A stretch of DNA of 64,000 nucleotides from positions 6,673 through 70,672 of the forward strand of contig CACYHG010000004.1 of assembly GCA_902774175.1 (NCBI GenBank). The letters run 5' to 3'. The notes under the pieces were generated by a model. The model was not told the DNA's origin, did not search any database, and saw only the letters and a program-made list of their open reading frames with translations. Of this stretch, positions 2,328-25,753 are shown piece by piece; positions within the stretch are counted from its first letter, which is position 1, and every line of letters starts with the position of its first letter. Source of the stretch: an uncultured Bacteroidota bacterium. Its GTDB lineage: Bacteria > Bacteroidota > Bacteroidia > Bacteroidales > WCHB1-69. The position numbers and the translations under genes are program-made.

Positions 2328-4472
2328 ATGAAGATCAGAACCAGCATTTTGTGCATCGCCATCGCGATGTTTGTGACGGCAGCCCGCGCCGATGAGGGGA
2401 TGTGGCAGCCCTATTTCATCAACGGACAGAACCTTGCGGAGATGCAGCGGCTCGGCTGCAAGCTCACCGCAGAGCAGATTTTCAGTTTCAACCAGCCCAG
2501 CCTGAAGGATGCCATCGTGCAGTTCGGCAACGGCTGCACCGGAGAACTCATCTCCCCGGAGGGACTGCTGCTCACCAACCACCATTGCGGCCTCGGACAG
2601 ATTCAGGCGCACTCATCAGTAGAGCACGACTACCTGCAGACCGGATTCTGGGCCCGCAGCAAGGGCGAGGAGCTACCGAACAAGGGACTGACCGTCTCAT
2701 TCTTGAATTATATTGAGGATGTGACCGGAGCGGTGCTTAAAGGGGTCACCGACAACATGTCGGAGGAAGAACGTGCCAAAACAATCCAGAAAAACGGCAA
2801 GATGCTGATCGAAAAACGCGGAAAAGAGGGCGGCAAGCGCGTGGAGATTGTCCCCTTCTACCACGGGAACCAGTTCATCCTGTTTGAATATGAAGTCTAT
2901 AAGGATGTCCGCTTAGTGGCCTGCCCGCCATGGGGCATCGGCAAATACGGCGCCGACACCGACAACTGGACCTGGCCGCGCCACAAGGGCGACTTCTGCA
3001 TTTTCCGCGTATATACCGCACCGGACGGCTCCCCCGCCGAATACAGCAAGAACAACATCCCGATGAAGCCGAAGCACTTCCTCCCCATCTCGCTCAAGGG
3101 GGTGCAGCCCGGCGACTACACCATGATTCTCGGCTACCCCGGCTCCACCGACCGCTACTCCCACTCCGGCTCGGTCAAAAATGTGATGGAGCTGGAGGGA
3201 CCTGCCATCATCGCCTGCCGCACCACCAAACTGGAGCAGTACCGCAAGCACATGGATGCCGACCCCGCCGTATTTATCCAGTACGCCTCCAAACAGGCCA
3301 GCGTGAGCAACTATTGGAAATACAGCATCGGACAGGTGAAACAATTGAAGAACAACAAGGTGTATGAGAAACGGCTTGCGCAGGAGCAGGCCTTCCGCGA
3401 ATGGGTGAATGCCGATAAGGGACGCAAAGCCAAATACGACGGCATTCTGGAGGAGCAGGACCGCTATTGGGAGCACCAGTCCAAATACACCAAGGCGCTG
3501 ATCTACCACCGCGAGGCCGGCTGGCGTGGCGGTGAGGCGGTGGCCTTCGCCAACAAATTCCTGCGGCTGAGCAACGCCATCGGACAAAAGAGCCTGACCG
3601 ATGAGCAGATTGCCGGATACGCCAAACAGATGAAACCTGAAGTTGACGCATTCTTCAAGGATTACAACAAGGCGTTGGACCGTGACGTGACCATAGCTCT
3701 GCTGAATCTCTTCTACAAGGATATACAGCCCGACCAGCTGCCCGCCCTCATCAGGAAGGTTGGCGACAAGGCGCACGGCGACTTCACCGCATACGTGAAC
3801 AAAGCCTTCGACAAGTCGGTGCTGGTGGACAAGAGCAAACTGGACGCCTGGCTTGACAACCCCAAACCGCTGGACAAAGACCCCATCTTCGCACTGATGT
3901 ATGACATCGTTAAATCATACGTCACACTGGATGAAGCGTCGGAAACGGTCAACAACGGACATGCCGAAAGGCTCTACATGCAGGGACTGATGGAGATGCA
4001 GAAGGAGCGCAACTTCTACCCCGACGCCAACTTCACCATGCGGCTCACCTACGGCAGCGTGCAGGACTGCCACCCTGCGGACGGTGTCACCTACAGCCAC
4101 TTCACCACACTGGACGGCGTGATGGCCAAGTACAAGCCCGGCGACTGGGAGTTTGACCTGCCGAAGGATCTCATCAGTCTTTGGGAGAAGAAGGACTACG
4201 GCCGCTACGCCGACAAGGAGGGCAACCTCGTGGTAAACTTCATCACCACCAACGACATCACCGGCGGCAACTCCGGCAGCCCCGTCATTGATGCCGAAGG
4301 CAACCTCATCGGCCTCGCCTTCGACGGCAACTGGGAGGCCATGAGCGGCGACATCTCCTTCGAGCACAAGGTGCAGCGCACCATCTGCATGGACATGCGC
4401 TACCTGCTCTTCATCATCGACAAGATGGCCAACGCCCAAAACCTGCTGCAGGAGCTGAAGATTGTAGAGTGA
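2328..4472 (+). CDS. S46 family dipeptidyl-peptidase (DPP7/DPP11-like serine protease)
   Basis: A signal peptide is followed by ADEGMWQP. The catalytic His context is LLLTNHHCG and the catalytic Ser context is TGGNSGSPV. The length (714 aa) is typical of the S46 family. Confidence 0.9.
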   Translation: MKIRTSILCIAIAMFVTAARADEGMWQPYFINGQNLAEMQRLGCKLTAEQIFSFNQPSLKDAIVQFGNGCTGELISPEGLLLTNHHCGLGQIQAHSSVEHDYLQTGFWARSKGEELPNKGLTVSFLNYIEDVTGAVLKGVTDNMSEEERAKTIQKNGKMLIEKRGKEGGKRVEIVPFYHGNQFILFEYEVYKDVRLVACPPWGIGKYGADTDNWTWPRHKGDFCIFRVYTAPDGSPAEYSKNNIPMKPKHFLPISLKGVQPGDYTMILGYPGSTDRYSHSGSVKNVMELEGPAIIACRTTKLEQYRKHMDADPAVFIQYASKQASVSNYWKYSIGQVKQLKNNKVYEKRLAQEQAFREWVNADKGRKAKYDGILEEQDRYWEHQSKYTKALIYHREAGWRGGEAVAFANKFLRLSNAIGQKSLTDEQIAGYAKQMKPEVDAFFKDYNKALDRDVTIALLNLFYKDIQPDQLPALIRKVGDKAHGDFTAYVNKAFDKSVLVDKSKLDAWLDNPKPLDKDPIFALMYDIVKSYVTLDEASETVNNGHAERLYMQGLMEMQKERNFYPDANFTMRLTYGSVQDCHPADGVTYSHFTTLDGVMAKYKPGDWEFDLPKDLISLWEKKDYGRYADKEGNLVVNFITTNDITGGNSGSPVIDAEGNLIGLAFDGNWEAMSGDISFEHKVQRTICMDMRYLLFIIDKMANAQNLLQELKIVE

Positions 4473-4473
4473 T

Positions 4474-4585
4474 TTCCGCCAAATCGCCGAACAAAATTCC
4501 GCCAAATCGCCGAACGAAATTCCGCCAAATCGCCGAACGAAATTCCGCCAAATCGCCGAATGAAATTCCGCTAAATCGCCGAACA
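4474..4585. repeat. Tandem repeat, 23-bp unit x about 5 (ttccgccaaatcgccgaacgaaa)
   Basis: Copies start at 4474, 4497, 4520, 4543 and 4566. Copies 2 and 3 are identical and the others differ by 1-4 nt. The array starts 2 nt after the S46 peptidase stop codon. The period is not a multiple of 3, so it is non-coding. Confidence 0.9.
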
Positions 4586-4827
4586 TATTGAAATAATGAT
4601 TATTTTTGCGGCGTAAAAACGATGAACATGAACAGATATAAATGGTGACGATTTCATTAATGTAGTGCCGGTGGGGTGTTTGAAGGGGTAAGGAAAACTT
4701 TTTTTTCTATTCTTCATTCGGAAAAAAAATTGGGTGTATATGGAATATGTAATCATATTTTACGGAAATTTGCAAATTATTAATTGGTGTCTGCAATATA
4801 CAAATTGAGAAAGAGAATTTGAAAGGT

Positions 4828-7818
4828 ATGGCTCTTGAAAAACAAATAGAAGACCAGTTTATTAGATATTTAAGCGAAAATCTGAAATATGTCTATCGCG
4901 AGGACATTCATGACAGGAATTCGCTTGAGCGGAATTTTCGGGAGAAGTTCCAATCCTTGAATCGTTGTCATTTGACCGATAATGAGTTTGCCCGTTTGTT
5001 GGAGGAAATCACGGATTCGGATGTGTTCAACGCTTCGAAACGATTGCGTGAACGCAATACTTTCATGCGTGAAGATGGAACGCCGCTACAGTATATGTTG
5101 GTGAACATCAAAGATTGGTGTAAGAACGATTACGAGGTGATTCACCAGTTGCGCATGAACACACGGAACAGTTTTCAGCGCTATGATGTCATTTTGCTCA
5201 TCAACGGTTTGCCAGTCGTGCAGATTGAGTTGAAGACTTTGGATGTCAGTCCGCGCCGCGCCATGCAGCAAATTGTGGACTACAAGAACGATGCCGGCAA
5301 CGGCTACACCAATTCGCTGCTGTGTTTCATGCAAATGTTCATTGTGAGCAATCAGCATAATACCTATTATTTCGCCAATAATAACAAGGAGCATTTCAAC
5401 TTCAATGCTGAGGAAAAATATCTGCCTGTGTATCAATGGGCTGACGAGAAAAACCAGAAGATAACAGGTTTGGAGGCTTTTTCGGATGCTTTCTTGCAAA
5501 AGTGCCGCTTAGGCGAGATGATTAGTCGCTATATGGTTTTGGTGGCTTGTGAACGGAAGGTGCTGATGATGCGCCCATATCAGATCTATGCGGTAAAGGC
5601 GATTGTCAGTTGCATCAACGAGAACCGTGGCAACGGCTACATTTGGCACACCACGGGTAGCGGAAAAACACTCACTTCGTTCAAGGCTTCAACGCTATTG
5701 AAGGACAATCCTGAAATTGAGAAATGCCTTTTTGTGGTGGACCGTAAAGACCTCGATAAGCAAACGCGCGAGGAATTCAACAAGTTCCAAGAGGGTTGCG
5801 TGGAGGAAAACACCAACACGGATGCACTTGTCCGCCGTATGCTTTCCGAGGACTATGCCGACAAGATTATTGTGACCACCATTCAAAAGTTGGGCATTGC
5901 CCTTGATCCACAAAACCGCCGTAATTATCAGGAAAGGCTTATGCCGTTGAGAGACAAACGGGTGGTATTTATCTTCGATGAGTGCCATCGTTCGCAATTT
6001 GGCGATAACCATAAGGCCATTAAGGAGTTTTTCCCGAAATCGCAGTTGTTTGGGTTTACGGGAACTCCTATTTTTGAAGAGAATGCCACCTATACTCAAA
6101 GAACTGGTGAAGAGGCTAGATACAAGACTACGAAAGATGTCTTTCAAAAGGAACTGCATGCCTACACTATCACCAATGCCATTGAGGACAGGAATGTGCT
6201 GCGTTTCCATGTGGATTACTTCAAACCCGAAAAGTCGGATATGGCGGGAGAGACGGTGAAGAAATCTGCGGTTGTGCGTACCATTTTGGCCAAGCATCGT
6301 GCAGCCACCGCCGACGGGCGTTTCAACGCCATTCTTGCTACGGGTTCCATCAATGAGGCCATTGAGTATTACCATCTGTTCAAGGAGATGCAAGCACAAA
6401 AGTTAGAGATGGATAATACTTATGATCCTTTGAACATTGCTTGCGTGTTCTCGCCGCCCGCCGAGGGTAATCGTGACATCCAGCAGATTCAAGAAGATTT
6501 GCCACAGGAACAAAAAGACAACGAGCAGGAACCCGACAAGAAAAAGGCTGCCTTGATGACCTTCATTGCTGATTATAACAAGCAGTTTGGTACTAATTAT
6601 TCTGTGAACGAGTTTGATGCGTATTATCAGGATGTGCAGCAGCGTATCAAGAACCAGCAATACAGTAATAAGGACTATGCCCACGAGAACAAAATAGACA
6701 TCACGATTGTGGTGGATATGTTGTTGACGGGCTTTGATTCCAAGTATCTGAACACACTATATGTGGACAAGAACTTGAAATACCATAGTTTGGTGCAGGC
6801 CTTTTCGCGCACCAATCGTATCCTAAACGATAGCAAGCCTTACGGAAACATTCTTGACTTCCGTGGTCAACAGGAGGCCGTGGATACTGCCATCGCCTTG
6901 TTCTCTGGCGAGAAGAAGGAAGAGGCAAGACAAATTTGGTTGGTGGAACCTGCTTCGGTTATCAGGAAGAAATACCTTGATGCGGTGAATGGTTTGCGCA
7001 ATTTCATGGCACTTCATCATCTTGATTTTAAGGCGGAGGATGTGTTCAATCTGAAAGGTGACGATGCAAAGGCTGGTTTCATCGTTTGCTTCAAAGAAGT
7101 GCAGCGACTCAAGACACAACTCGACCAATATACTGACCTTGTGGAAGTTGAAGAGGAAAGCGCTCCGAGTTTTGTGGCAGAGCCGCAAGCATCGTATGGT
7201 TTCACTGATGATGACTTGCGGGCCTTCCGTGGGGCGTATCTCGACATTGCCCGCGAACTGAAAACACGAAGAGAAAAGTCGGATGCATCCGTTCCAAATG
7301 AGGTAGAGGAACTCGATTTTGAGTTTGTCTTGTTTGCTTCGGCCATGATTGACTACGACTATATCATAGAATTGATTTCCAAGTGTATGGGACAGCCAGC
7401 TAAATGGAAGATGACCAAAGAGGAATTGGTCAACTTGATTCGTTCGAGTGCCAACCTCCTTGACGACCGTGAGGACATTATTGCCTACATCGACAGCCTC
7501 GATGGCGTGAATGGTCGAACAGTTGATGAAATCAAGGATGGATACGAGGTCTTCAAGACGGAGAAATATGCCAAGGAATTGATGGCCATTGCTGAAAAAC
7601 ATGGTTTGAGTGTAGCCTCGTTGCAGGCTTTTGTGAACGACATTGTAGATCGCAAGATTTTCGATGGCGAAAAATTGAACGACTTGCTTGAACCCCTTGA
7701 TTTGGGTTGGCGCGACCGCACTCGCAAGGAAACCGAACTGATGAACGACCTTGTGCCGTTGCTGAAACGCTTGGTGCCTGGGCAAGAGATTTCGGGGTTG
7801 AAGGCGTATGAGGAATGA
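4828..7818 (+). CDS. hsdR: Type I restriction enzyme R subunit (HsdR)
   Basis: SF2 motif I is WHTTGSGKTLTSF and motif II is FIFDECHRSQ. The protein is about 1000 aa and sits in a locus with hsdS and hsdM. ATG at 4828 is preferred over the TTG at 4819. Confidence 0.9.
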   Translation: MALEKQIEDQFIRYLSENLKYVYREDIHDRNSLERNFREKFQSLNRCHLTDNEFARLLEEITDSDVFNASKRLRERNTFMREDGTPLQYMLVNIKDWCKNDYEVIHQLRMNTRNSFQRYDVILLINGLPVVQIELKTLDVSPRRAMQQIVDYKNDAGNGYTNSLLCFMQMFIVSNQHNTYYFANNNKEHFNFNAEEKYLPVYQWADEKNQKITGLEAFSDAFLQKCRLGEMISRYMVLVACERKVLMMRPYQIYAVKAIVSCINENRGNGYIWHTTGSGKTLTSFKASTLLKDNPEIEKCLFVVDRKDLDKQTREEFNKFQEGCVEENTNTDALVRRMLSEDYADKIIVTTIQKLGIALDPQNRRNYQERLMPLRDKRVVFIFDECHRSQFGDNHKAIKEFFPKSQLFGFTGTPIFEENATYTQRTGEEARYKTTKDVFQKELHAYTITNAIEDRNVLRFHVDYFKPEKSDMAGETVKKSAVVRTILAKHRAATADGRFNAILATGSINEAIEYYHLFKEMQAQKLEMDNTYDPLNIACVFSPPAEGNRDIQQIQEDLPQEQKDNEQEPDKKKAALMTFIADYNKQFGTNYSVNEFDAYYQDVQQRIKNQQYSNKDYAHENKIDITIVVDMLLTGFDSKYLNTLYVDKNLKYHSLVQAFSRTNRILNDSKPYGNILDFRGQQEAVDTAIALFSGEKKEEARQIWLVEPASVIRKKYLDAVNGLRNFMALHHLDFKAEDVFNLKGDDAKAGFIVCFKEVQRLKTQLDQYTDLVEVEEESAPSFVAEPQASYGFTDDDLRAFRGAYLDIARELKTRREKSDASVPNEVEELDFEFVLFASAMIDYDYIIELISKCMGQPAKWKMTKEELVNLIRSSANLLDDREDIIAYIDSLDGVNGRTVDEIKDGYEVFKTEKYAKELMAIAEKHGLSVASLQAFVNDIVDRKIFDGEKLNDLLEPLDLGWRDRTRKETELMNDLVPLLKRLVPGQEISGLKAYEE

Positions 7819-7841
7819 TATTAATGATAATAATCTAATCA

Positions 7842-8372
7842 ATGATGATTTCTAACGAACAAGCTGATTATTTGATTCATTTGAAGAAGAAAATCTTTCA
7901 GAATGACAATGTTTTGGAGAATCTTGCCATAAACCAAGAGTTTCCATTGAACTTGCGTTATGAACTGGTTTCCGAAGATGATGATGAATTCACGTTTTTA
8001 TGGGTGATTACGCAAAGTGCAAAAAACGCCCTGAAGATTTCATTACACTATCAAGAAAATGAAAGTAACGTAGGTTTACTTAGGGTGGATTATTATGGGA
8101 CACATCAAAATCCATTTGCCGCAAAGGAGAACCTTCCCGACAAATTCCGACCTTATATAGGAAAGTTTTTCTCATACGATGAATGTCATGTGCATTATCA
8201 TGTTGAGGGGTATAAACCTTTGGCTTGGGCTGTTCCGATAGCAGATTCCGAAATGGACACAACAGAAATTACAGAAACGAATGTGAATCAACAGATGATT
8301 TCTGCTATTATGGATTTTGCCAAAATAATTAAAATTGAAACAAAAATAACTATTAATCCCTTGTTGTTATGA
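7842..8372 (+). CDS. Hypothetical protein (176 aa) embedded in the type I R-M locus; no family recognised
   Basis: The ORF starts at an ATG 24 nt after the hsdR stop. Its stop overlaps the next gene's start (ATGA at 8369-8372). It has a His/Cys-rich patch, SYDECHVHYHVEGY, and an LLRVDYYGTHQNP segment. Confidence 0.6.
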   Translation: MMISNEQADYLIHLKKKIFQNDNVLENLAINQEFPLNLRYELVSEDDDEFTFLWVITQSAKNALKISLHYQENESNVGLLRVDYYGTHQNPFAAKENLPDKFRPYIGKFFSYDECHVHYHVEGYKPLAWAVPIADSEMDTTEITETNVNQQMISAIMDFAKIIKIETKITINPLLL

Positions 8373-9160
8373 ATGATTGGTTTGAAGACAGTATTAGTCA
8401 GTATTATCACTGGTTAAGAGAAAAAACATTTACCAAATCTGATGGACAATCGGGTTGGATTGCAGTGTCCACTCCCTTTTTGGGACTTTTTAACGATCCT
8501 ATTGAAGTATACATGAGGTTACAGGGGGATACTATTTTGTTGTCTGACGATGGGGTTACATTAAAGAATCTGGCTTTATCGGGGGCGAACGTGACCCGTT
8601 CTCAAAAAAGGAAGGAATGGTTGGAATACATATTGTTAAATTACGGGGTCGAGCTACATAACGATGAATTATGTATTAGTGCGAAACAGGCTGATTTTCC
8701 ACAGAAAAAGCACAATCTGATTTGTGCCATATCAGAAATTTCAGACATGGAAATTACTGCGAAACACATAGTATCATCGTTATTTAAAGAAGATGTAAAA
8801 CAGCTGCTTGATGATCAAGGCATTATTTACACGCCCCAGTTTATCACGAAGGGAAGTACGGGTATAGAATTCACTTTTGACTTTCAGATTGCAAGCAGAG
8901 AAAAGGAATTGGTGCTGAAATCGTTCAATTCATTGAATAAAATCAATGTTCCAAGTTTCCTTTTTAGCTTGGACGATATCAAGCCTGTTCGAGAAAGAAC
9001 ATCTGGGAAACAGTTGCTTAGCCTTGCTGTGGTTAATGATGTGGAAAAAGAGATAAAACAAGAGTTCATTAGTGCATTACAGAGCAAAAACACAGACATC
9101 ATATATTGGAGTGAACGTAATAAACCCGAAAACATACAGAAACTTCATTTAGTAGCATAA
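8369..9160 (+). CDS. DUF1828/DUF1829-like two-domain protein (263 aa), function unknown
   Basis: The N-terminal segment GWIAVSTPFLGLFNDPIEVYMRLQGDTILLSDDGVTLKNL matches my recollection of DUF1828. The C-terminal half (GSTGIEFTFDFQI...) resembles DUF1829. It is translationally coupled to the upstream ORF. Confidence 0.6.
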   Translation: MNDWFEDSISQYYHWLREKTFTKSDGQSGWIAVSTPFLGLFNDPIEVYMRLQGDTILLSDDGVTLKNLALSGANVTRSQKRKEWLEYILLNYGVELHNDELCISAKQADFPQKKHNLICAISEISDMEITAKHIVSSLFKEDVKQLLDDQGIIYTPQFITKGSTGIEFTFDFQIASREKELVLKSFNSLNKINVPSFLFSLDDIKPVRERTSGKQLLSLAVVNDVEKEIKQEFISALQSKNTDIIYWSERNKPENIQKLHLVA

Positions 9161-9188
9161 TAATGAATGTGAGTATTGAAATATATTG

Positions 9189-9196
9189 TATCTTTG
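9189..9196 (+). promoter_or_regulatory. Candidate Bacteroidetes -7 box (TATCTTTG) inside the R-M locus
   Basis: It matches TAnnTTTG and lies in the 179-bp gap between the DUF1828/1829 gene and hsdS. It is about 145 nt upstream of the hsdS ATG, so the assignment is weak. Confidence 0.3.
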
Positions 9197-9339
9197 TGCT
9201 TTCAAATAAAAGCAATGTTTTATTTGAGAAACTTATTGATAATAAGCCTCTCAGGCGCGCCTTTGGCAGCATACTTGAGGGGCGTTTCTCATTTTATAAC
9301 CCCAGTTGTTACTAATTCTAACGAAAGAATCCATTGATT

Positions 9340-10563
9340 ATGGCCGAAGAACGAACATATAAGCACATCCCCGCCCTTCGCTTCACCGATTTCGCCAATG
9401 ATGGGGATTGGGAAGTGAAGCGATTGGGAGATTGTTTATTACAAACACCAGATTATGGAATAAATGCACCCGCGGTTCCTTTTTCTAACAATTTGCCGAC
9501 ATATTTGAGAATTACTGACATTTCTGATAATGGGCGTTTTATTAAAGAAGGGAAAGTTTCCGTTGACACCGTTTTAACAAAAGACAATTCCCTTCAAGAT
9601 GGTGATATAGTGTTTGCTAGAACAGGTGCAAGTGTTGGAAAAGTATATAAATATAGAAAAGAAGACGGCCCACTAGTTTTTGCAGGTTTTTTGATACGAG
9701 TTAAACCTAATGAAACCCGATTGAATTCTGGCTTTTTATTTCATTATTTGTTTACAAGTGCATATAAGAAATGGGTTGAGGTAACTTCAACAAGAAGCGG
9801 ACAGCCTGGAATTAATAGTGCTGACATTGCTTCTTTGCCAATTTTCTTTCCTCATCTTACCGAGCAGCAGCACATAGCAGTTTGCCTTTCTGCGGCAGAT
9901 GAAATGATTGCCACCACCAACGGAAAACTCGAACAACTGAAAGCCTACAAGAAAGGTTTGATGCAGAAACTATTCCCCGCCAAAGGCAAAAAACTGCCCG
10001 AACTGCGTTTTAAGGAGTTTGAGAAGGATGGGGAATGGGAAGAAAAGAAGTTGGGAGAGATAGTTAATGTTTTAGATTCTCAGCGCAAGCCTGTGGCAAA
10101 GAATGAGCGTATGAGAGGAAAATATCCGTATTATGGAGCTAATGGTATTCAGGATTATGTTTCTGATTATATTTTTGATGGTTCTTTTTTACTAATGGGT
10201 GAAGATGGGAGTGTCATTAACAAAGATGGCACACCAGTATTACACTGGGCAGAAGGGCGGATTTGGGTTAATAATCATGCACATGTAATGAGTGAAAACT
10301 GTAATGCTGCATATCTCAAATATGTATTTTATGTTCTTTCAAAAGTTGATGTGCAATCTCTGGTTAAGGGAATACCACCAAAAATAAACCAACAAAATAT
10401 GCGTAACATATTATTACTTATTCCATCTTTGCCAGAGCAGGTGAAAATTGCCTCATGCCTTTCCACATTGGATGAAAAGATAAATTCATACAAGGAAAAG
10501 ATTGCTCTATTGGGGCAATATAAAAAAGGATTGATGCAACAACTGTTTCCAACTTCAAAATAA
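9340..10563 (+). CDS. hsdS: Type I restriction-modification specificity subunit (HsdS), two target-recognition domains
   Basis: Two half-repeats each end in a conserved helix: LEQLKAYKKGLMQKLFP and IALLGQYKKGLMQQLFP. It lies between hsdR and hsdM. ATG at 9340 is preferred over the TTG at 9334. Confidence 0.85.
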   Translation: MAEERTYKHIPALRFTDFANDGDWEVKRLGDCLLQTPDYGINAPAVPFSNNLPTYLRITDISDNGRFIKEGKVSVDTVLTKDNSLQDGDIVFARTGASVGKVYKYRKEDGPLVFAGFLIRVKPNETRLNSGFLFHYLFTSAYKKWVEVTSTRSGQPGINSADIASLPIFFPHLTEQQHIAVCLSAADEMIATTNGKLEQLKAYKKGLMQKLFPAKGKKLPELRFKEFEKDGEWEEKKLGEIVNVLDSQRKPVAKNERMRGKYPYYGANGIQDYVSDYIFDGSFLLMGEDGSVINKDGTPVLHWAEGRIWVNNHAHVMSENCNAAYLKYVFYVLSKVDVQSLVKGIPPKINQQNMRNILLLIPSLPEQVKIASCLSTLDEKINSYKEKIALLGQYKKGLMQQLFPTSK

Positions 10564-10573
10564 TTCAAGAGAC

Positions 10574-11704
10574 ATGAAATTGATAGAAATAGCAAAACAG
10601 ATAAGAGAAGCGAAGGAAAGCATATTTCTCATATATGCATTCAATGGCACAGGAAAGACAAGGCTTTCTATTCAATACAAAGAAGATGCAAGAGAACAAC
10701 AGCCTGATGAAAATGGAAAAAGAAAGCAAACTGGAGTTTACTATAATGCCTATAGTGAAGACTTGTTCGTCTGGGATAATGACATTGAACATTCAGAGGA
10801 AAATATCAAGTTGCGTATAGTCCCAAGTAGTCTGAATGAGTCCCATTCATTGATTTATGAAGATGATGTAAGGCTAAAACTAAAACCATATAACCCAAAA
10901 TATGATTTTGTTTTCCATTCGTATGAGGATGACCCGTCAAAGGGTATTGAGTTTATTTCATTTCATTTGGATGACAAAGATGAAAAAAGCATAAAACTAT
11001 CTAGGGGAGAGGAAAGAATCTTTGTTTGGTGTTTTTTCTTGGCTTTGATTGATTCGGAAGGATGGGCGGACAAACAAAATCAGTATATTTTTATTGACGA
11101 TCCTGTTTCAAGCCTTGACGATCATAATATATTTGTGACGGCATTCACTTTGTTTGAACTTATCAAGAAGCATTACGAAACTCGAAAGATTATTATCACG
11201 ACTCACCATATCGGATTTGCAACAATTCTTGGCAATTGGCTAACGGATCCAAGTAATCATTTCAGAGGGAATAAAGGGAATAATAAATATCAACTCAGGG
11301 GATTATCATTAGATAATGGTGACTACTCGTTTGTTAGTTTTGCTGATAAGGCGGTTTGGCTTTATCATTTGAGAATGTTACAGGTTTTGGACAAAGCTAT
11401 TCAAGATGATGCAGATGATAGTTCGGAGAATGGAATTGAGGTCTATCATATGGCAATTTTGAGACAGATTTTGGAGAATATTTCTTCGTTTTTAGGTGTC
11501 GGAAGGATTGGTTTTGTGTTGGAACAAATTGGATATAGTAAAGAAGAGGCAGATAGAATAGCTCTTGAAGACAATGCTTTAACTCATAGGAATGTGTATT
11601 TCCCGCAATCCGATATCATGGTTCCTGATAATAAGAACCTGTTAATAGATGTGTTTAATAGAATTATCGAAAAGTATCATTTTGATTATAAAAGAATGCA
11701 ATAA
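10574..11704 (+). CDS. prrC: PrrC-type anticodon nuclease (ABC-like NTPase N-domain plus C-terminal ACNase domain)
   Basis: Walker A is LIYAFNGTGKTRLS, followed by YYNAYSEDLFVWDND. The signature-like motif is KLSRGEE, Walker B plus D-loop is YIFIDDPVSSLDDHN, and the H-loop is IITTHH. The C-terminal ILRQILENISSFLG (R-x3-E) and LTHRN (His) parallel the Arg320/Glu324/His356 triad of E. coli PrrC as I recall it. It is inserted between hsdS and hsdM with 10-nt and 3-nt gaps. Confidence 0.8.
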   Translation: MKLIEIAKQIREAKESIFLIYAFNGTGKTRLSIQYKEDAREQQPDENGKRKQTGVYYNAYSEDLFVWDNDIEHSEENIKLRIVPSSLNESHSLIYEDDVRLKLKPYNPKYDFVFHSYEDDPSKGIEFISFHLDDKDEKSIKLSRGEERIFVWCFFLALIDSEGWADKQNQYIFIDDPVSSLDDHNIFVTAFTLFELIKKHYETRKIIITTHHIGFATILGNWLTDPSNHFRGNKGNNKYQLRGLSLDNGDYSFVSFADKAVWLYHLRMLQVLDKAIQDDADDSSENGIEVYHMAILRQILENISSFLGVGRIGFVLEQIGYSKEEADRIALEDNALTHRNVYFPQSDIMVPDNKNLLIDVFNRIIEKYHFDYKRMQ

Positions 11705-11707
11705 AAT

Positions 11708-13291
11708 ATGACACAAAATAACCAACAAGAACTCGGTAAGACCCTTTGGAACATCGCCAACAACCTGCGCGGTGCAATGATGGCGGATGATTTCCGCGAT
11801 TATATGTTGTCATTCCTTTTCTGGAAATACCTGTCGGATAATTATATAAAATCAGCACAAAAGGAACTGGGCTCGGATTATACAGCCTTGCAAGTATGGT
11901 ATAAAGAAAATCCCAACGATACGCTGTTGTTTGAACGACAAATGCGGCGCAAGATTCATTATGTTATTGAGCCTCAATATCTTTGGGACAACGTTGTGGA
12001 ACTTGCCCGCACACAAAGCAATGATTTGCTTCAAACGTTGCAAGACGGTTTCAAATATATTGAAAATGAGTCGTTTGAAAGTTCGTTCAAGGGGTTGTTC
12101 TCTGAAATCAACCTGAATTCGGAGAAGTTGGGCAAGAACTACACCGAACGCAATGCACTTTTGTGCAAGGTCATCAAGACCATTGCCGACGGCCTTGCAG
12201 AGACCCCTTCGGACTCCGATGATCTGGGTGATGCCTACGAATACTTGATAGGTCAGTTTGCGGCAGGTTCGGGGCAAAAAGCAGGTGAGTTCTACACACC
12301 GCAAATGATTTCAACTATCCTTTCTCGTATCGTCACCCTCGACTGTCAAGACCCCACAACGGGCAAAAAGAAACGCATTGATAAAGTGCTCGACTTTGCT
12401 TGCGGTTCGGGCTCGTTGCTGCTGAATGTGCGCCGAGAAATGAAAGACCATGCTATCGGCAAGATTTACGGTCAAGAGAAAAACATCACTACCTACAACC
12501 TTGCCCGAATGAACATGCTGCTGCATGGTGTGAAGGACACAGAATTTGAAATCCACCACGGTGATTCGCTTGCCAATGATTGGGACATTCTCAACGAGCA
12601 GAATCCCGCCAAGAAGATGCAGTTTGACGCAGTGGTTGCCAATCCACCTTTCAGTCTGCGCTGGGATCCGACGGAAGAAACCGCCAAAGATTTCCGTTTC
12701 AATCGCTATGGAGTGGCACCCAAGTCCGCCGCCGATTTTGCTTTCTTGTTGCATGGTTTCCACTTCTTGAGCGACAACGGCACGATGGCCATCATACTGC
12801 CTCACGGCGTGTTGTTCCGTGGCGGCAAGGAAGAAGTCATCCGCAAGAAACTGCTTGAAGACGACAACATCGATGCCGTCATTGGCCTGCCTGCCAACTT
12901 GTTCTATTCCACCGGCATTCCGGTGTGCATCCTTGTGTTGAAGAAATGCCGCAAGAACGACAAGATTCTGTTCATCAATGCTAGCGGAGAGGAGCATTAC
13001 GAGAAAGGCAAACGCCAGAACTACCTTCGAGTCAAGAATGTGGATAAGATTGTGGAAACTTATCAATTCCGCAAAGAGGAACCGCGTTTCTCTCGCTTGG
13101 TTTCATTGGCGGAAATCAAGGAAAACGACTACAACCTCAATATCACACGCTATGTCAACCTGTCGAAGGAAGAAGAACAGATTGACCTTGAAGTCGTTAC
13201 CAAGCAACTGCATGAAACGGATGCAAAAATTGAGGAATCACGAGGCAAACTCAATGTGTTTTTGAAGGAGTTGGGGTTGGAGGAGATATAG
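11708..13291 (+). CDS. hsdM: Type I R-M N6-adenine DNA methyltransferase subunit (HsdM)
   Basis: The AdoMet motif is LDFACGSGSLLLN and the catalytic motif is VVANPPFS. The N-terminal HsdM_N-like segment is LWNIANNLRG. Confidence 0.92.
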   Translation: MTQNNQQELGKTLWNIANNLRGAMMADDFRDYMLSFLFWKYLSDNYIKSAQKELGSDYTALQVWYKENPNDTLLFERQMRRKIHYVIEPQYLWDNVVELARTQSNDLLQTLQDGFKYIENESFESSFKGLFSEINLNSEKLGKNYTERNALLCKVIKTIADGLAETPSDSDDLGDAYEYLIGQFAAGSGQKAGEFYTPQMISTILSRIVTLDCQDPTTGKKKRIDKVLDFACGSGSLLLNVRREMKDHAIGKIYGQEKNITTYNLARMNMLLHGVKDTEFEIHHGDSLANDWDILNEQNPAKKMQFDAVVANPPFSLRWDPTEETAKDFRFNRYGVAPKSAADFAFLLHGFHFLSDNGTMAIILPHGVLFRGGKEEVIRKKLLEDDNIDAVIGLPANLFYSTGIPVCILVLKKCRKNDKILFINASGEEHYEKGKRQNYLRVKNVDKIVETYQFRKEEPRFSRLVSLAEIKENDYNLNITRYVNLSKEEEQIDLEVVTKQLHETDAKIEESRGKLNVFLKELGLEEI

Positions 13292-13353
13292 AGTCAAAAT
13301 TATGGAGTGTAAAACTCAAATTAAAGGTTGAAAAAAAACATAAAGAACATATT

Positions 13354-14181
13354 ATGGGCAAAACAATAACAACCTATTTGATAGACGGTGACCCGAAAGG
13401 CACCCAATACGTGTTCATCAGCAATAAGATTTGCCAGATGTATGTGATTCCTCGTTCCAACCTCTCGATTCTGAATGAGCGACAGGAATTGCAGACCCCG
13501 GCATTTTATATTCTGTTGGGCGAGGATGAGACCACAAAGCCAAAGGCATACATCGGTGAGACAGAGAATTTCCGCGAGCGAGTGAAAGACCACGACAGTA
13601 AGAAAGAGTTTTGGCAAAAGGCACTGCTGTTTATCTCGAAAGATGCTGCTATGACAAAGGCTGACGTACAGTATTTGGAATATCGTGCTATCACAGAAGC
13701 GAAAACCTCAAATACGTTTGTTCTAAATGAGAACAAACAGTCACCCAAGGCTCCCAATCTTCCAGAATTCAGGAAGGACGATATGGACGCTTTCTTTGAA
13801 GATGTTAAATTCCTCACATCTTTTGTTGGCTGCAATATTTTTGATGTAGCCATACCTAAAGAAGAGCATCTTTTCTACACAAAGGGGCGTGGTTGTGATG
13901 CCAGAGGTTTCTATGATGCCAATGGTTTTACCGTATTAAAAGGAAGCATTGTTGCCAAAACATCTGTCCCTTCGCTCGATTGGAAAGAGAAACGTGCAAA
14001 CCTTCTCAAAGATTACACTATATCCAATGGCGACAAGTTGGAATTGGAAACAGACAAAACTTTCCCAAGTCCTAGCACCGCATCAATGTTTGTTTTAGGC
14101 CGTCCTTCCAATGGCTGGACCGATTGGAAAGATAAAGATGGACATACTTTGGATGATGTGTATAGGAAACAATTAGAATAA
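13354..14181 (+). CDS. GIY-YIG nuclease-like protein with a DUF4357-like C-terminus
   Basis: The GIY-YIG-like elements are PAFYILLGED...KAYIGETENFRERVKDH. The C-terminal FPSPSTASMFVLGRPSNGWTDWKDKDG resembles DUF4357. Confidence 0.7.
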   Translation: MGKTITTYLIDGDPKGTQYVFISNKICQMYVIPRSNLSILNERQELQTPAFYILLGEDETTKPKAYIGETENFRERVKDHDSKKEFWQKALLFISKDAAMTKADVQYLEYRAITEAKTSNTFVLNENKQSPKAPNLPEFRKDDMDAFFEDVKFLTSFVGCNIFDVAIPKEEHLFYTKGRGCDARGFYDANGFTVLKGSIVAKTSVPSLDWKEKRANLLKDYTISNGDKLELETDKTFPSPSTASMFVLGRPSNGWTDWKDKDGHTLDDVYRKQLE

Positions 14182-14352
14182 ATGATTGAAACACCATGAC
14201 TACCAACAGGAAAACATCGGAGTTTGTCACCCCGCAACCATTGGTTTTATACAACACGAGGCACACTCCTATTTTTCATTTTGCCTGTGCATCCAACAAT
14301 CAATCAGCGGTAAAAATCGCCAATGAAATAATTGAGAAAAAAAAGAAATAAA

Positions 14353-15090
14353 ATGAAAACAACAATAATTGAATGGACGGACAAGACTTGGAATCCCATA
14401 ACGGGATGCACCAAAAAGTCAGCTGGTTGCGCACACTGCTATGCGGAAGTGATGTCGCGGAGGCTGAAGGCCATGCGACTTGAAAAATACCGCAACGGCT
14501 TTGAGCTGACACTGCATGAGGACGATCTGTACGAACCTCTCCAATGGAAGAAATCGCACAACATCTTCGTGTGTTCCATGAGTGACATCTTTCACGAGAA
14601 GGTCCCGTTTGAATTTGTGGATAAGATTTTGCAAACAATAGAACAGACACCACAGCACCGCTATCAGATTTTGACCAAACGTTCGGAGAGAATGGCGGAA
14701 TATTTCAAATCGAGGAAAATACCAAATAATGTCTGGTTAGGAGCGACTGTGGAATGCAGGGATTCTAAAAAAAGGATTGACGATTTGAGGTCATTTGATG
14801 CCACGGTTAAATTTCTCTCCTGCGAACCCCTAATTGAGGATTTGGGCACCTTGAACCTTGATGGCATAGACTGGGTGATTGTAGGCGGCGAAAGCGGACC
14901 TTTTGCACGACCGATGAAACCTGAATGGGTAGTCAGTATCAAAGAACAAGTCGAGCAGCAAGGGGCTTCGTTTTTTTTCAAACAATGGGGAACCTGGGGA
15001 AGCGATGGCAAAAAACGCAGCAAACATGCGAACGGAAAGCTGTTGCAAGGAAAAGTAATACAACAAATGCCTGACACAAAAAACATATAA
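14353..15090 (+). CDS. DUF5131 / phage Gp37-Gp68 family protein
   Basis: IEWTDKTWNPITGCTKKSAGCAHCYAE (C-x6-C-x2-C) and WVIVGGESGP...FFFKQWG are characteristic of this family as I recall it. ATG at 14353 is preferred over the upstream alternative start at 14332. Confidence 0.75.
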   Translation: MKTTIIEWTDKTWNPITGCTKKSAGCAHCYAEVMSRRLKAMRLEKYRNGFELTLHEDDLYEPLQWKKSHNIFVCSMSDIFHEKVPFEFVDKILQTIEQTPQHRYQILTKRSERMAEYFKSRKIPNNVWLGATVECRDSKKRIDDLRSFDATVKFLSCEPLIEDLGTLNLDGIDWVIVGGESGPFARPMKPEWVVSIKEQVEQQGASFFFKQWGTWGSDGKKRSKHANGKLLQGKVIQQMPDTKNI

Positions 15091-15540
15091 AATCAATACA
15101 TCATGTCACGATTAAGCGATTTGTGCAAGGCAAGTGAGGGAATAAATGAGGGAATAAATGACAAACAAACGATATGACATCAAATAAAGATAACAATGTT
15201 TTATGACCAAAGAGATAAAAAAGACAAATAAAGAGGTCGTTTCCACATTAAATTATAGAATTGTGCCATTTGAAACAGCACAAAATCAACCTTTTCAATT
15301 TGTGCCAATTCAATTGTCACAAATTCCCGAGGTGCATTTCAGTACTGGATGGACAAAACATCAAACTGCCCAACAAATAAGATCGAAGTGTAATAAAAGC
15401 TATTCTGGAACAATATGACAAACACCAACACAACACCTACCAACGAAAATCAATTCATATTATACCAACTTCCAGAGGAAGAAGGGGTAATACAAGTGGT
15501 TATTAAAGACATTACAAAAAAATTAAACACCCAAACCATC

Positions 15541-16272
15541 ATGAAAAGATTTATGCTTTTGGTCACAGCGGTGGCCGTTACGGTGATGAGCTCCTTTGCG
15601 CAACGCGACAGCGTCATCCCCTATTTGAGCGTCAGCGAACTGCCAAACCTGATAAAGTGCCTGCCACCTCCGCCCTCCAGCAACAGCCCTGAGTTCGCAT
15701 ACGACGTGCTGCGCTACCAATGGGGAAAGACACAGCGTCTGAACCCCGAACGCGCCGCCATCGCCAAGCGCGACGCCGTATGGTCATACGAGGCGCTGCT
15801 GGCGGAGTTCAACGTCCCGTTCGGCATGACCATCTCCAAAACGGAGACACCTGAAATATGGAAACTTTTGGAAACCAGCCTTGTCACCACTGACCAGATG
15901 CGTGTGGCACCAAAAAAGTACTATCACCGCACACGTCCGTTCGAGATGTACGAAGAGCATCTGCTCTCCCCTGAAACCGAGGCGGATCTGCGCGGAGAAG
16001 GAAGCTATCCGTCAGGACATACGGCCCGAGGCTGGATGGCGGCACTGCTGTTGGCGGAAATCAATCCGGCCCGTGCCGACACCATCTTCGCACGAGGATG
16101 GATGTACGGCGAGAGCCGCGTCATAGAGGGTGCGCACTGGCAAAGCGACGTGGATGCCAGCCGGGTGGCGGCCAGCATAGGCTACGCGGCCCTGCAGAAC
16201 AGCGAGGCATTCCGCAAACAGGTGGAAAAGGCCAAGGCAGAGTTTGCACGTAAAAGCGGTAAGAAAAAATAG
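15541..16272 (+). CDS. Class A non-specific acid phosphatase (PAP2 family), secreted
   Basis: The PAP2 motifs are KKYYHRTRPF, YPSGHTARG and SRVIEGAHWQSDV. The signal peptide MKRFMLLVTAVAVTVMSSFAQ starts at ATG 15541. The track ORF start at 15415 adds unrelated upstream sequence. Confidence 0.85.
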   Translation: MKRFMLLVTAVAVTVMSSFAQRDSVIPYLSVSELPNLIKCLPPPPSSNSPEFAYDVLRYQWGKTQRLNPERAAIAKRDAVWSYEALLAEFNVPFGMTISKTETPEIWKLLETSLVTTDQMRVAPKKYYHRTRPFEMYEEHLLSPETEADLRGEGSYPSGHTARGWMAALLLAEINPARADTIFARGWMYGESRVIEGAHWQSDVDASRVAASIGYAALQNSEAFRKQVEKAKAEFARKSGKKK

Positions 16273-19877: not shown

Positions 19878-21032
19878 TTACTTTTTCAATTCATTATATA
19901 GAGCCAGCCCCTTCACTGTCAACAGATACTTCTGGCGGGGATGGTTTGGGGATTGTGGATATAGCAGACGGACATATCCGTCGGTGATGGCAGGGTTAAG
20001 GTGATATTCAATGAAGTTTGGCCTGTGTTTTAAGCCGCTTTTAGCCATCAACTGGGAGACAGACAATTCTTCACAACCTATTTTTTGTATTAGTTCCACA
20101 ATTAAAGGATTATTTGTATGCAATAAATCTTTTACTTGTTCGGGTACTTGTTCGGGTACCTGTTCGGGTACTTGTTCGGGTAAGGACAGATTGGGCTGAA
20201 CGCTCCATTTTTCAGTAGGATGGATATGCAGGTAGCGGTTGCGCAAATCCCACTGTTCGCCAAGCAGTAGGTTGCGAAAGAAACGCTCCAGAAATACAGG
20301 AGAATAGTCAATGCCTTTCACAGCATTTTTGTAATTGGCGCGAACCAGCGCATTGCGGAAATACCATGAATGCAGTGCGAACATATCGTTGTTCACCCCA
20401 AAGCCGATGTGACGCAGATAAAGTATGGTAAACACCGCCGTAGTACGCGTGTTACCTTCTCCGAAGGCGTGTATCTGCCAAAGGCCGGAGACAAATCGGG
20501 TAATATGTCTGATAAGCTCGTTATGAGAAAGCCCCTTGTAACTGAAAGCCCGTTCTTGAGCAATGTCATAGTCCAATGCACGGTGCAAATCTTCCCAGTT
20601 CAAATAACGCACCGTGTCACCTTCCAACACCCACTCTTTTTTAGTGATGTTGTATTTGCGCAGTTCACCGGCATGTTTCATGACACCTTCAAAAATCTTA
20701 CGGTGCAATGAAACATACCCTCTAGTTGTAAAATCAATTGTGGCGGCTGAGAGAATCTCCTGGATGTTGTTTGAGACTGTGTCTGCCTCATGACGTTCGT
20801 CATCATCCGGCTCACGTTTGGTTTTAGTCTGATAATATTCCTTGATGAGACGCCTTACATCATCAGTGGAAATTTCTCCTTCAATGTGTCGTTGGGCCGT
20901 ATGCTTGAGATAGTCAGAAACCCGCAAACCGTCCACCGCCTGCAAACCTATGGCGGTCTGCCAGTTACGGGCTTTTTCCTGCTGAACAGGCTCAACCTGC
21001 CTGATATATTCGTCAAAATCCTCTTGCCTCAT
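19878..21032 (-). CDS. Fic/DOC family protein with a C-terminal winged-helix-like domain
   Basis: The Fic motif variant is HAFGEGNTRTTAVF. An internal (PEQV)x4 linker is present. The C-terminus is ...LKHRPNFIEYHLNPAITDGYV. Confidence 0.85.
   Translation of the reverse strand: MRQEDFDEYIRQVEPVQQEKARNWQTAIGLQAVDGLRVSDYLKHTAQRHIEGEISTDDVRRLIKEYYQTKTKREPDDDERHEADTVSNNIQEILSAATIDFTTRGYVSLHRKIFEGVMKHAGELRKYNITKKEWVLEGDTVRYLNWEDLHRALDYDIAQERAFSYKGLSHNELIRHITRFVSGLWQIHAFGEGNTRTTAVFTILYLRHIGFGVNNDMFALHSWYFRNALVRANYKNAVKGIDYSPVFLERFFRNLLLGEQWDLRNRYLHIHPTEKWSVQPNLSLPEQVPEQVPEQVPEQVKDLLHTNNPLIVELIQKIGCEELSVSQLMAKSGLKHRPNFIEYHLNPAITDGYVRLLYPQSPNHPRQKYLLTVKGLALYNELKK
20133..20180. repeat. 12-nt x 4 in-frame tandem repeat inside the Fic gene (encodes PEQVPEQVPEQVPEQV)
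   Basis: The unit tacttgttcggg is repeated at 20133, 20145, 20157 (one substitution) and 20169. Confidence 0.9.
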
Positions 21033-21046
21033 GACCTAACTCTATG

Positions 21047-21054
21047 CAAATATA
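21047..21054 (-). promoter_or_regulatory. Candidate -7 box TATATTTG for the Fic gene
   Basis: The reverse complement of caaatata matches TAnnTTTG. It lies 15 nt upstream of the Fic ATG (21032). Confidence 0.5.
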
Positions 21055-21220
21055 ACGCTCCGATTGCTGTTATATTGTGCCTCCCCACATTTTTTTGAAC
21101 CCTCCCACAATATTTTTTCAGCGGAAGCGTTATTTTTACGCCAATCTGAGCTTTCCCGTGGAAGCCCTTTATTTTGGCGATTTGGAATATTGTGAATGAA
21201 GAGGTAAAAAAAATAAACGG

Positions 21221-21439
21221 ATGATAGCCGGTTTTAGAAAGATAGACAGATTGTTATGGAAGCCGCTCGTTTGGAATCCGGCAGATGGAGAAAGCAGAAG
21301 GTACACCACATTAAAATCCCTTGAAAATGAATGCTGGCTGCAACTGAATGATTTTCCGGATGAACCTATGTGGACGCTATTTTTTAAAGGAGAAGAGAGA
21401 AATATTGAAGACACACCATTATTATGGAAAATCAATTAA
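21221..21439 (+). CDS. Hypothetical small protein (72 aa)
   Basis: It is an ATG ORF in an otherwise empty 560-bp gap. The sequence LQLNDFPDEPMWTLFFKGEERNIEDTPLLWKI looks protein-like. There is no family assignment and coding status is uncertain. Confidence 0.3.
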   Translation: MIAGFRKIDRLLWKPLVWNPADGESRRYTTLKSLENECWLQLNDFPDEPMWTLFFKGEERNIEDTPLLWKIN

Positions 21440-21535
21440 AATATTGACAATAAATCCACATTCACTCTTTGAGAAAGTCTTATCTCATATATTTCTGTTT
21501 TATTGTGTACCCGTCATGCTTTTTTCATAAAATCC

Positions 21536-21597
21536 TCCTGCTTGATGTATTGGAAATGGTTCCCCAGTTCCTTGCAGCCATGAAGCCCGGTGAATTT
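21536..21597. repeat. 62-bp direct repeat, copy A (flanks the TA cassette on the toxin side)
   Basis: It is 56/62 identical to 22220-22281, and the first 47 nt differ at only 1 position. Confidence 0.9.
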
Positions 21598-21871
21598 ATT
21601 TTTCAAACAGTTCCCTGTGACTGCCCAATCTGACCAGTTGGATGATGTCATTTTTTTTGTCATACCATATCAGCAAAAAATCACCCTGGATATGACACTC
21701 CATACAGTTTTTGAATTTTCCATGAAGCTTATGGGGAAACAGCTCTGCCGGGACAGGTTTGCCATTTTGCAGCAGTAAAAGAACACTTTTAAGCAGTGCG
21801 ATTTTTTCAGGGTCGTTTTTTATTCGCTTGAAATCTTTCCTGAATTGGGTAGTGGGTTGTAGTTTTTTCAT
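21596..21871 (-). CDS. yafQ: YafQ-family (RelE/ParE superfamily) type II toxin, mRNA interferase
   Basis: FRKDFKRIKND...HKLHGKFKNCMECHIQGDFLLIWY...RLGSHRELF is typical of YafQ. Its ATG overlaps the antitoxin stop (ATGA at 21868-21871). Confidence 0.8.
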   Translation of the reverse strand: MKKLQPTTQFRKDFKRIKNDPEKIALLKSVLLLLQNGKPVPAELFPHKLHGKFKNCMECHIQGDFLLIWYDKKNDIIQLVRLGSHRELFEK

Positions 21872-22119: not shown

Positions 22120-22194
22120 TTGTAATACATTTAAATATTTTCAGCTGCAAAAGTAACACTTTTTTGAATCAAATGCCCGTTTTTTTTATTTTTT

Positions 22195-22955: not shown

Positions 22956-22972
22956 TTTTATTGAGATTCAAA

Positions 22973-23458: not shown

Positions 23459-23574
23459 TTCATAAATCTTTAAATATTCATCAATAATAAAGCTATGATG
23501 TGTGTTTTATTGTATTTCGGAGATGTGTGTCTATTCTCTTTCTAATTTTGGGTTAATCTTATTTTGGGATTATA

Positions 23575-24363: not shown

Positions 24364-24366
24364 ATA

Positions 24367-25670: not shown

Positions 25671-25753
25671 GGTCAATATGGTTTTATTGGTTTATAACGT
25701 TATTGTTTGAGGGTTTATTGCATTTTCGGCAGGAAAAAAGTGGAATCTCCCTG

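Follow-up and report, generated by a model that had tools for sequence, protein, structure and literature searches.

Organization of the locus

We analyzed a 64,000-nucleotide (nt) stretch of DNA, hereafter called "the window", from an uncultured rumen Bacteroidales (contig CACYHG010000004.1), and focused on its variable segment at positions 4474–15517. This segment of 11,044 nt lies between the genes for an S46 peptidase and a PAP2 phosphatase, and carries a type I restriction–modification (R-M) locus together with additional genes, all on the + strand. The gene order hsdR, orf176, DUF1828/1829, hsdS, prrC, hsdM, GIY-YIG/DUF4357, and DUF5131, proposed in a preliminary description of the sequence, was confirmed by Pfam, PADLOC, and NCBIfam, and orf176 is a DUF6978 gene. 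The same description counted four extra cargo genes; the extra genes indeed form four units, but they number five, each of which matches a PADLOC model.

The base composition distinguishes the island from its surroundings. The flank genes have 54–57% GC, with 64–80% GC at the third codon position (GC3), as compared to 35–47% GC in the island, and the tetranucleotide distance from the window mean is maximal at 8–11 kb. The island is AT-richer than its flanks, as previously described, and the AT-richness is not uniform. It is a mosaic, in which hsdR and hsdM have 46–47% GC and 56–58% GC3, the DUF6978, DUF1828/1829, hsdS, and prrC genes have 35–38% GC and 32–38% GC3, and the last two genes (GIY-YIG/DUF4357 and DUF5131) have 42–44% GC.

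The hallmarks of an integrase- or transposase-borne island or an integrative and conjugative element, which are a recombinase, a tRNA or att target, and terminal repeats, are missing. The whole 64-kb window contains no tRNA gene, none of the genes called within 10 kb on either side of the island is annotated with an integrase or transposase Pfam family, and Pfam detected no recombinase domain among the island proteins, in agreement with the preliminary description. In addition, no significant terminal inverted repeats, flanking direct repeats, or target duplication were detected at the island ends. The absence of a recombinase, a tRNA gene, inverted repeats, and a target duplication fits recombination-mediated acquisition, which had been put forward as one of two possible origins. 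An Rfam search of the island returned nothing meaningful.

Empty site and alternative alleles of the slot

How does the same slot appear in other genomes? The nearest GTDB species representatives are rumen Bacteroidales metagenome-assembled genomes (MAGs), with only 76–82% amino acid (aa) identity. Their neighbors of the S46 and PAP2 genes are not shared with the window, and neither flank gene retains synteny; in the relatives, housekeeping genes lie downstream of the S46 gene. The empty-site comparison was therefore made within the species. The public cattle metagenome runs chosen as conspecific have contigs (de Bruijn assemblies from Logan, k=31) that hold 55–64% of the 31-mers of the flanks, and these contigs were mapped onto the window.

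Contigs of the runs X11, X25, and X26 join position 4473 directly to position 15518, skipping the 11,044 nt, at a depth of 12–19. The empty form reads ...GTAGAGTGA-T-AAAAATTAAACACCCAAACCATC-ATG, with 24 nt from the peptidase stop codon to the phosphatase ATG. In X26, the depth of the PAP2 contig (35) is about equal to the island (18) and the empty junction (19) combined. In run X10, both flanks are covered at ~10x and the island coverage is zero, and in a contig from run X3, 14 nt link 4694 with 15259. The variable segment extends up to and including position 15517: the unitigs of X2, X3, X5, X25, and X26 start exactly at 15518. The search for adjacent peptidase and phosphatase genes, suggested in the preliminary description, thus yielded an exact 4473|15518 junction in three samples, as well as a contig (L158) in which the two genes are separated by a 241-nt filler.

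Scanning the JGI and GenBank metagenome contigs with the last ten codons of the S46 gene retrieved six contigs, with S46 genes 95–98% identical to that of the window at the nt level. Three of them (L153, L154, and L157) have 97–98% nt identity in the S46 gene despite different downstream cargo: the same stop codon is followed by four units of a 23-bp tandem repeat, and then by an HKD(PLD)-SNF2 helicase (1086 aa) and a Schlafen/AlbA_2 protein. L156 has three units and the 110-nt spacer of the window, followed by another HKD-SNF2 helicase, an AlbA_2/Fic-like_C protein, a type IIG-like Eco57I/TaqI_C methyltransferase, and two unknown proteins, while L155 has six units followed by two unknown genes. 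In L158, the repeat is absent and the filler (L158:1455-1696) leads to the PAP2 gene; the empty and filler alleles have the same right junction, without any repeat. The filler translates to a peptide, …WQRNYYEHIIRNTNSYKAIANYIKQNPAKW…, that resembles, by eye only, the C-terminus of an IS200/RAYT-type tyrosine transposase, and it has no Pfam match at E ≤ 10.

All of the alternative cargo is AT-richer than the flanks, and the slot assumes at least six states in contigs with flanks 95–98% identical at the nt level, as in a core defense hotspot. The preliminary description had named two outcomes that would speak against an island, a flank-like composition and a block conserved in syntenic position across the family. 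Neither was observed: the composition differs from that of the flanks, and relatives as well as conspecific strains lack the block at the syntenic position. The S46–PAP2 intergenic slot is a strain-variable defense hotspot with allelic replacement at exact junctions.

Turnover also takes place inside the island. The prrC gene is present or absent between strains, and the joints 10563>11706 (X11), 10551>11707 (X2), and 9965>11708 (X9) remove it cleanly between the hsdS stop codon and the hsdM ATG. In X9, the depth of prrC is 5, as compared to 28 for the rest of the island. Moreover, the target-recognition domains of hsdS differ by strain (joints 9413>9847, 9431>9883, and 9588>10262). HsdS is only 35–58% identical in aa sequence to its counterparts in two related loci, L159 and L160, as compared to 83–97% for HsdR and HsdM.

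The 23-bp tandem array and the island edges

The left limit of the variable slot is the stop codon of the S46 gene, and the 23-bp array begins 2 nt past it (Table 1). The unit is found nowhere else in the window. The array stands at the head of every occupied slot allele; the empty and filler alleles lack it. Its orientation is constant ahead of four different cargo sets, and its copy number varies from three to six among the alleles described above; another assembly, L081, has one copy fewer than the window. In single-stranded form, the array is predicted to be unusually free of structure (z +2.75). The 23-mer core forms no array in the 185,579 GTDB species representatives or IMG/VR, where it has only single chance matches in unrelated high-GC genomes. 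The preliminary description regarded this repeat as the left edge of the island. The array does lie just past the stop codon, but it is a framework element common to at least four cargo alleles, rather than an edge specific to this island. The array is followed by the left arm, which recurs in L156; this contig aligns to window positions 4335–4692 and then diverges. A motif scan located a Bacteroidetes-type −7 box, TATTTTTG, in the left arm at 4601–4608.

The right arm contains a 12-bp tandem repeat, TGAGGGAATAAA, at 15135–15161 (2.2 copies by Tandem Repeats Finder, TRF), which varies by strain: run X12 yields a contig with two additional copies, corresponding to +24 nt at 15134. Debris with Fic- and RhuM-like peptides had been described in this region. 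The RhuM part holds, as the truncated 5′ end of a RhuM-family gene (~30 codons at ~15424–15513) is 63% identical in tblastn to the N-terminus of L002:6382-7320(-), a gene that matches Virulence_RhuM at 2.2e-90. In contrast, the Pfam search at E ≤ 10 on the right-arm peptides gave no match and no Fic signal.

The PAP2 gene starts at the ATG at 15541, where its product begins with a signal peptide (MKRFMLLV...), and the homologues align only from ~residue 43 of the long open reading frame. On these grounds, the frame as listed (15415–16272) was rejected, with its extension at 15415–15540 being spurious. The end coordinate of 15540 given in the preliminary description is therefore correct, although the variable segment ends at 15517. 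The match of the PAP2 product to the NCBIfam PhoC-like family (1.9e-50) is below the cutoff.

Table 1. Features of the S46–PAP2 slot and its flanks, in window coordinates.
Feature	Position	Strand	Support
S46 (DPP7/DPP11-type) peptidase, left flanking core gene	2328..4472	+	Pfam Peptidase_S46 6.9e-233; 57% GC
23-bp direct tandem array, unit TTCCGCCAAATCGCCGAACGAAA, 4.8 copies	4474..4584		TRF score 201
Left arm, conserved spacer (110 nt)	4585..4694		Same spacer in L156, a different cargo allele
hsdR, type I restriction subunit, EcoR124-type C-terminal domain	4828..7818	+	TIGR00348 397 bits (cutoff 284.55)
DUF6978 protein, 176 aa (PADLOC PDC-M24A)	7842..8372	+	Pfam DUF6978 9e-18; PADLOC 2.3e-57
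DUF1828/DUF1829 protein (PDC-M24B)	8369..9160	+	Pfam 2e-25 and 1e-18; PADLOC 5.5e-92
Intergenic region upstream of hsdS	9161..9339		Alignment with L159 and L160; RNA fold
hsdS, specificity subunit, two target-recognition domains	9340..10563	+	Pfam Methylase_S in 2 stretches
prrC, PrrC-type anticodon nuclease homologue	10574..11704	+	PADLOC PrrC 1.4e-92, profile positions 20-349 of 372
hsdM, N6-adenine methyltransferase subunit	11708..13291	+	TIGR00497 398.8 bits (cutoff 242.75)
GIY-YIG-like N-domain and DUF4357/RAMA-like C-domain protein (PDC-S14)	13354..14181	+	PADLOC 9.7e-85; Pfam DUF4357 1e-17
DUF5131 (phage Gp37/Gp68 family) protein	14353..15090	+	Pfam 1e-105; PADLOC PDC-M30B/PDC-M41B ~1e-114
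Right arm, non-coding debris	15091..15517		TRF; tblastn; unitig starts
PAP2 / class-A acid-phosphatase-like lipoprotein, right flanking gene	15541..16272	+	Pfam PAP2 9.8e-14

Restriction–modification genes

The three subunits of a type I R-M system, HsdR, HsdM, and HsdS, are encoded together. HsdR consists of the Pfam domains HSDR_N, SWI2_SNF2, T1R_D3-like, and EcoR124_C, and its helicase motifs I and II are intact (GSGKT at residue 277 and DECH at 384). The SAM-binding and NPPF motifs of HsdM are likewise intact (DFACGSG at 229 and NPPF at 312).

The intergenic region upstream of hsdS harbors a second −7 box, TATCTTTG, at 9189–9196. Judging from the two Bacteroidetes-type −7 boxes, at 4601 and 9189, the locus may be transcribed as two or more units, hsdR-DUF6978-DUF1828/9 and hsdS-prrC-hsdM(-GIY-YIG). 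The TAnnTTTG −7 box in front of hsdS is followed by a near-invariant block of ~60 nt (~9236–9300), composed of a 10-bp hairpin and then a U-rich tract (fold −33.6 kcal/mol, z −2.95). Its counterparts are L159:14045-14128 and L160:15570-15652, with neighboring DNA ~76% identical, and outside the window's own contigs, its exact 31-mer was found in L159 and L160 alone. No Rfam family matches this block, which looks like a leader, an attenuator, or a regulatory site of this R-M subfamily.

Accessory cassettes

The prrC gene is inserted between hsdS and hsdM, with gaps of only 10 and 3 nt, and is thus linked to a type I R-M system whose HsdR carries EcoR124_C. The PrrC homologue has the motifs of an ABC-type nucleoside triphosphatase (Walker A AFNGTGKT at residues 20–27, LSRGE at 140, and IFIDDP at 170). 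Its C-domain contains R295-x3-E299 and H336, which resemble the catalytic triad of EcoPrrC (R320, E324, and H356; PMC1484252), as judged by spacing and motif rather than by alignment with EcoPrrC.

The start of the DUF1828/1829 gene overlaps the stop codon of the DUF6978 gene by 4 nt (ATGA), as in a translationally coupled pair, and the two genes form the adjacent A and B pair that defines PDC-M24. The same pairing is found in L160, L196, and L425-L430. In the alignment of the DUF6978 proteins, a His/Asp cluster (H69, D83, H88, H116, and H118) is invariant. For the AlphaFold2 model of the DUF6978 protein (predicted local distance difference test score, pLDDT, 94; predicted template modeling score 0.91), Foldseek searches of the PDB and BFVD gave no significant match, and the cluster may represent a metal site in an undescribed fold. 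In contrast, the model of the DUF1828/1829 protein (pLDDT 85) matches VC1899, Cdn1, Bax1, AF1548, Can2, Card1, and other PD-(D/E)xK nucleases, with E values of 2.5e-5 to 1e-3 and low template modeling scores, and the residues D171, Q173, E180, and K184 are invariant. The model suggests a sensor-like N-domain and a PD-(D/E)xK-like nuclease C-domain, as would befit a sensor-plus-nuclease effector. The literature that we searched contains no validation of phage protection by PDC-M24; DUF1829 has been implicated in another, validated system, DS-6/HipAD (PMC13092281).

Homologues of the GIY-YIG/DUF4357 protein are encoded directly after hsdM in L161 and L162. The DUF5131 protein has a C19-x6-C26-x2-C29 motif, and its gene is preceded by 171 nt of non-coding DNA and followed by the debris. 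This gene appears to be an orphan, because the partner gene that defines PDC-M30 and PDC-M41 is missing. PDB sequence searches with the DUF6978, DUF1828/1829, GIY-YIG/DUF4357, and PrrC proteins gave no match.

Related R-M loci and horizontal spread

We recovered 80 loci with relatives of HsdR. In 65 of them, hsdR precedes hsdM on the same strand with hsdS in between, and 25 to 6981 nt (median 2698) separate hsdR from hsdM in these R-S-M loci. The hsd genes typically have additional DNA between them, as only ~3 of the 65 lack DNA beyond hsdS. A PrrC-like gene is present in 38/65, and the gap from hsdR to hsdS exceeds 500 nt in 23/65.

The R/M backbone has spread horizontally. HsdR is 63–68% identical in aa sequence across phyla, an archaeon included. 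One example is L159, a Candidatus Limimorpha MAG, in which hsdR is 90.7% identical to that of the window at the nt level (95% aa) and hsdM is 91% identical (97% aa), as compared to 67% aa identity for the S46 peptidase. L159 has a different hsdS, with no cargo between hsdS and hsdM. The preliminary description allowed the island to be old, which is unsupported, because the island segregates and its R/M genes are ~91% identical at the nt level to those of a MAG with an S46 peptidase of only 67% aa identity. The island thus appears to be a recent, segregating allele.

The cassettes show a distribution of their own. L160 has the DUF6978/DUF1828 pair, at 74% and 86% aa identity, and lacks prrC. 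The pair is found, too, on its own and within a locus of the M-S-...-R family. An identical DUF1828/1829 protein (P0006) is encoded in L425 and L426, between unrelated housekeeping genes in two chromosomal contexts, within the layout hsdR-DUF1016-DUF6978-DUF1828/9-hsdS-hsdM. Neither locus has a recombinase nearby, which would be another sign of R-M modules moving without visible mobility genes. From these comparisons, the R-M backbone and the cassettes appear to be independently mobile modules.

Neighboring regions of the window

The surroundings of the slot differ between species. The AhpC/redoxin gene (window 25227–25676; 91–93% aa identity) is located 10 kb beyond the PAP2 gene in the window, while it stands beside the S46 gene in some related species and beside the PAP2 gene in others (L001, L002, L090, L092, and L115 were compared). 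In L002, a full RhuM gene abuts the AhpC gene. The S46–PAP2–AhpC neighborhood has thus been rearranged between species.

About 4 kb to the right of the island, there is a second AT-rich block (37–42% GC, window ~20000–24400), which encodes a DUF2238 protein, a YafQ-type toxin preceded by a small partner, and several proteins without a Pfam match, and includes a 12-bp tandem repeat at 20133–20182. The gene for an SNF2-type helicase (25754–28561) lies beyond it. This block may be another variable or defense region. At the left end of the window, the contigs of all runs mapped there break at 709–838, where L153 and L154 have 1.3–1.8 kb of extra DNA, upstream of an RCC1/Por-tail gene. This points to another polymorphic insertion point.

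Evaluation of the explanations

We propose, with a probability of roughly 80%, that the slot is a strain-variable defense hotspot holding a horizontally acquired R-S-M type I R-M locus with accessory defense cassettes, and that its alleles are exchanged by recombination. Several points weigh against this proposal. The empty-site junction rests on de Bruijn contigs, in which the shorter side is only 30 nt (the k−1 overlap), all three of the empty-site samples are from one study, and the raw-read run X24, with only 8 reads placed, is too shallow to confirm the junction. The nearest species representatives lack S46–PAP2 synteny, and the data fit either gain or precise deletion. As for the gene content, the Pfam GIY-YIG match in the PDC-S14 protein (21.8 bits) is under the cutoff of 22.6, and the A-component partner of PDC-M30/M41 is absent among the island proteins. 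Finally, plain homologous recombination does not explain the 23-bp array shared by different cargo alleles.

The array could be accounted for by a decayed site-specific element, such as a Tn7-like element targeting the 3′ end of a conserved gene, with its recombinase lost or supplied in trans and the 23-bp units as its former binding sites. The left boundary is constant in every allele, at 1 nt past the S46 stop codon, and the array heads four cargo sets in the same orientation with a variable copy number, and is unstructured, as expected of a protein-binding iteron. However, the window contains no inverted copies of the 23-mer, terminal inverted repeats and target duplication are absent, and neither a transposase nor an integrase was found in the island (11 kb) or in the sequence examined in L156 (11.7 kb) and L157 (5.5 kb). 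Moreover, the empty and filler alleles reach the same right junction without the repeat, and neither the species representatives nor IMG/VR contain such an array, which makes the decayed element very unlikely. We also consider a functional counterpart, in which the array is a landing pad, namely an iteron-like set of binding sites through which a recombination or replication factor acting in trans guides defense cassettes into the slot without a recombinase in cis, and DUF6978 controls the DUF1829 nuclease as a metal-dependent partner of a new kind. Taken as a single joint proposal, this is speculative and we regard it as unlikely.

The locus might instead be ancestral and vertically inherited, with its low GC content due to a functional or mutational bias of R-M genes, and with the empty and alternative forms produced by secondary deletions or replacements. 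The merely moderate AT shift of hsdR and hsdM (46% GC) and the unpolarised direction of the presence/absence difference would be compatible with this history. Nevertheless, it is highly improbable in view of the ~91% nt identity of hsdR and hsdM with a MAG of another lineage, the conservation of HsdR across phyla, and the presence of an identical DUF1828/1829 protein, within one and the same R-M layout, in chromosomal contexts that are unrelated to each other (L425 and L426). In addition, the GC3 of the inner cargo (32–38%) is far from that of the flanks (64–80%), and housekeeping genes follow the S46 gene in related species. A chimeric assembly, with "alleles" that are mis-joins at the repeat, is extremely unlikely. 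The window does come from a metagenome assembly, and the 23-bp repeat collapses in k=31 graphs, as reflected in the one-copy difference in L081. However, two ENA cattle rumen assemblies give the same sequence, one of them with one repeat copy fewer, the X1 Logan contigs tile both sides of the right junction, and a 1782-nt contig of X9 spans the S46 gene, the array, and hsdR. Furthermore, the island and flank depths are equal in X1 (~12x), and the other alleles are found in independent JGI and GenBank contigs.

Proposed mechanism

We propose the following mechanism for the recombining hotspot, in which the enzymatic activities are predicted from the gene families.

Acquisition and exchange: The DNA would arrive via conjugation or transduction. 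Homologous recombination would then swap slot alleles and single R-M cassettes, with the conserved flanks and the short arms (4585–4694 and 15259–15517) as the regions of homology, and the island would need no mobility machinery of its own. For core defense hotspots, recombination mediated by the flanks has been proposed (PMC10250203).

Restriction and its backup: From what is known of the family, HsdM2S would methylate the host DNA, and HsdR would cut unmethylated incoming DNA. PrrC would be kept silent by the R-M complex, and would cleave tRNA anticodon loops once a phage anti-restriction protein disables the complex. The other cassettes may supply further independent nuclease-type layers. 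The silencing of PrrC by EcoprrI, its R-E-H triad, and its nesting in a type IC R-M locus have been described (PMC1484252).

Relation to known systems

As in the E. coli prr locus (EcoprrI), the type I R-M locus has a nested gene for a PrrC-family protein, which shows ABC-ATPase motifs and R-x3-E...H (PMC1484252). The HsdR of the island also has the EcoR124 (type IC) C-terminal domain. The island differs in its order, R-S-prrC-M, as compared to M-S-prrC-R in E. coli, as well as in its four further accessory genes and its Bacteroidales host.

Defense genes are widely embedded in type I R-M loci, and PrrC almost exclusively so, according to the study that is also the source of the PDC models (bioRxiv 10.1101/2024.01.29.577857). 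The island resembles the embedded genes in type I R-M, BREX, and DISARM described there (Payne et al.), as its five PADLOC-matching extras lie between or beside the hsd genes, and related loci fill the same slots with varying cargo. In contrast to those loci, the cassette turnover here is seen within one species population, with exact prrC breakpoints, and the DUF5131 gene lacks its defining partner.

Hotspots without mobility genes between core genes have also been described (PMC10250203; PMC5398294). Similar to P. aeruginosa cDHS1/2 (PMC10250203) and the variable defense locus of S. suis (PMC5398294), the slot has conserved flanks, strain-variable defense content, a lower GC content than the genome, and no mobility genes, and exchange through flank homology is proposed. 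It differs in that it is bounded by a peptidase stop and a phosphatase start, and not by a tRNA/tmRNA gene, in that its occupied alleles have the 23-bp array in common, and in that the evidence comes from metagenome contigs rather than isolates. Each element of the picture has therefore been described before, and the unexplained residue consists of the 23-bp array and the DUF6978 fold.

The finding leaves the current concepts unchanged, and provides a natural example of two published ideas together, defense genes nested in type I R-M loci and hotspots free of mobility genes. The defense biology of Bacteroidales is far less explored than that of E. coli or Pseudomonas. The base-exact junctions obtained from public metagenomes offer isogenic comparisons, with and without the island and with and without prrC, and such comparisons could show whether R-M in Bacteroidales is backed up by PrrC, by the DUF6978/DUF1829 pair, and by the GIY-YIG/DUF4357 protein.

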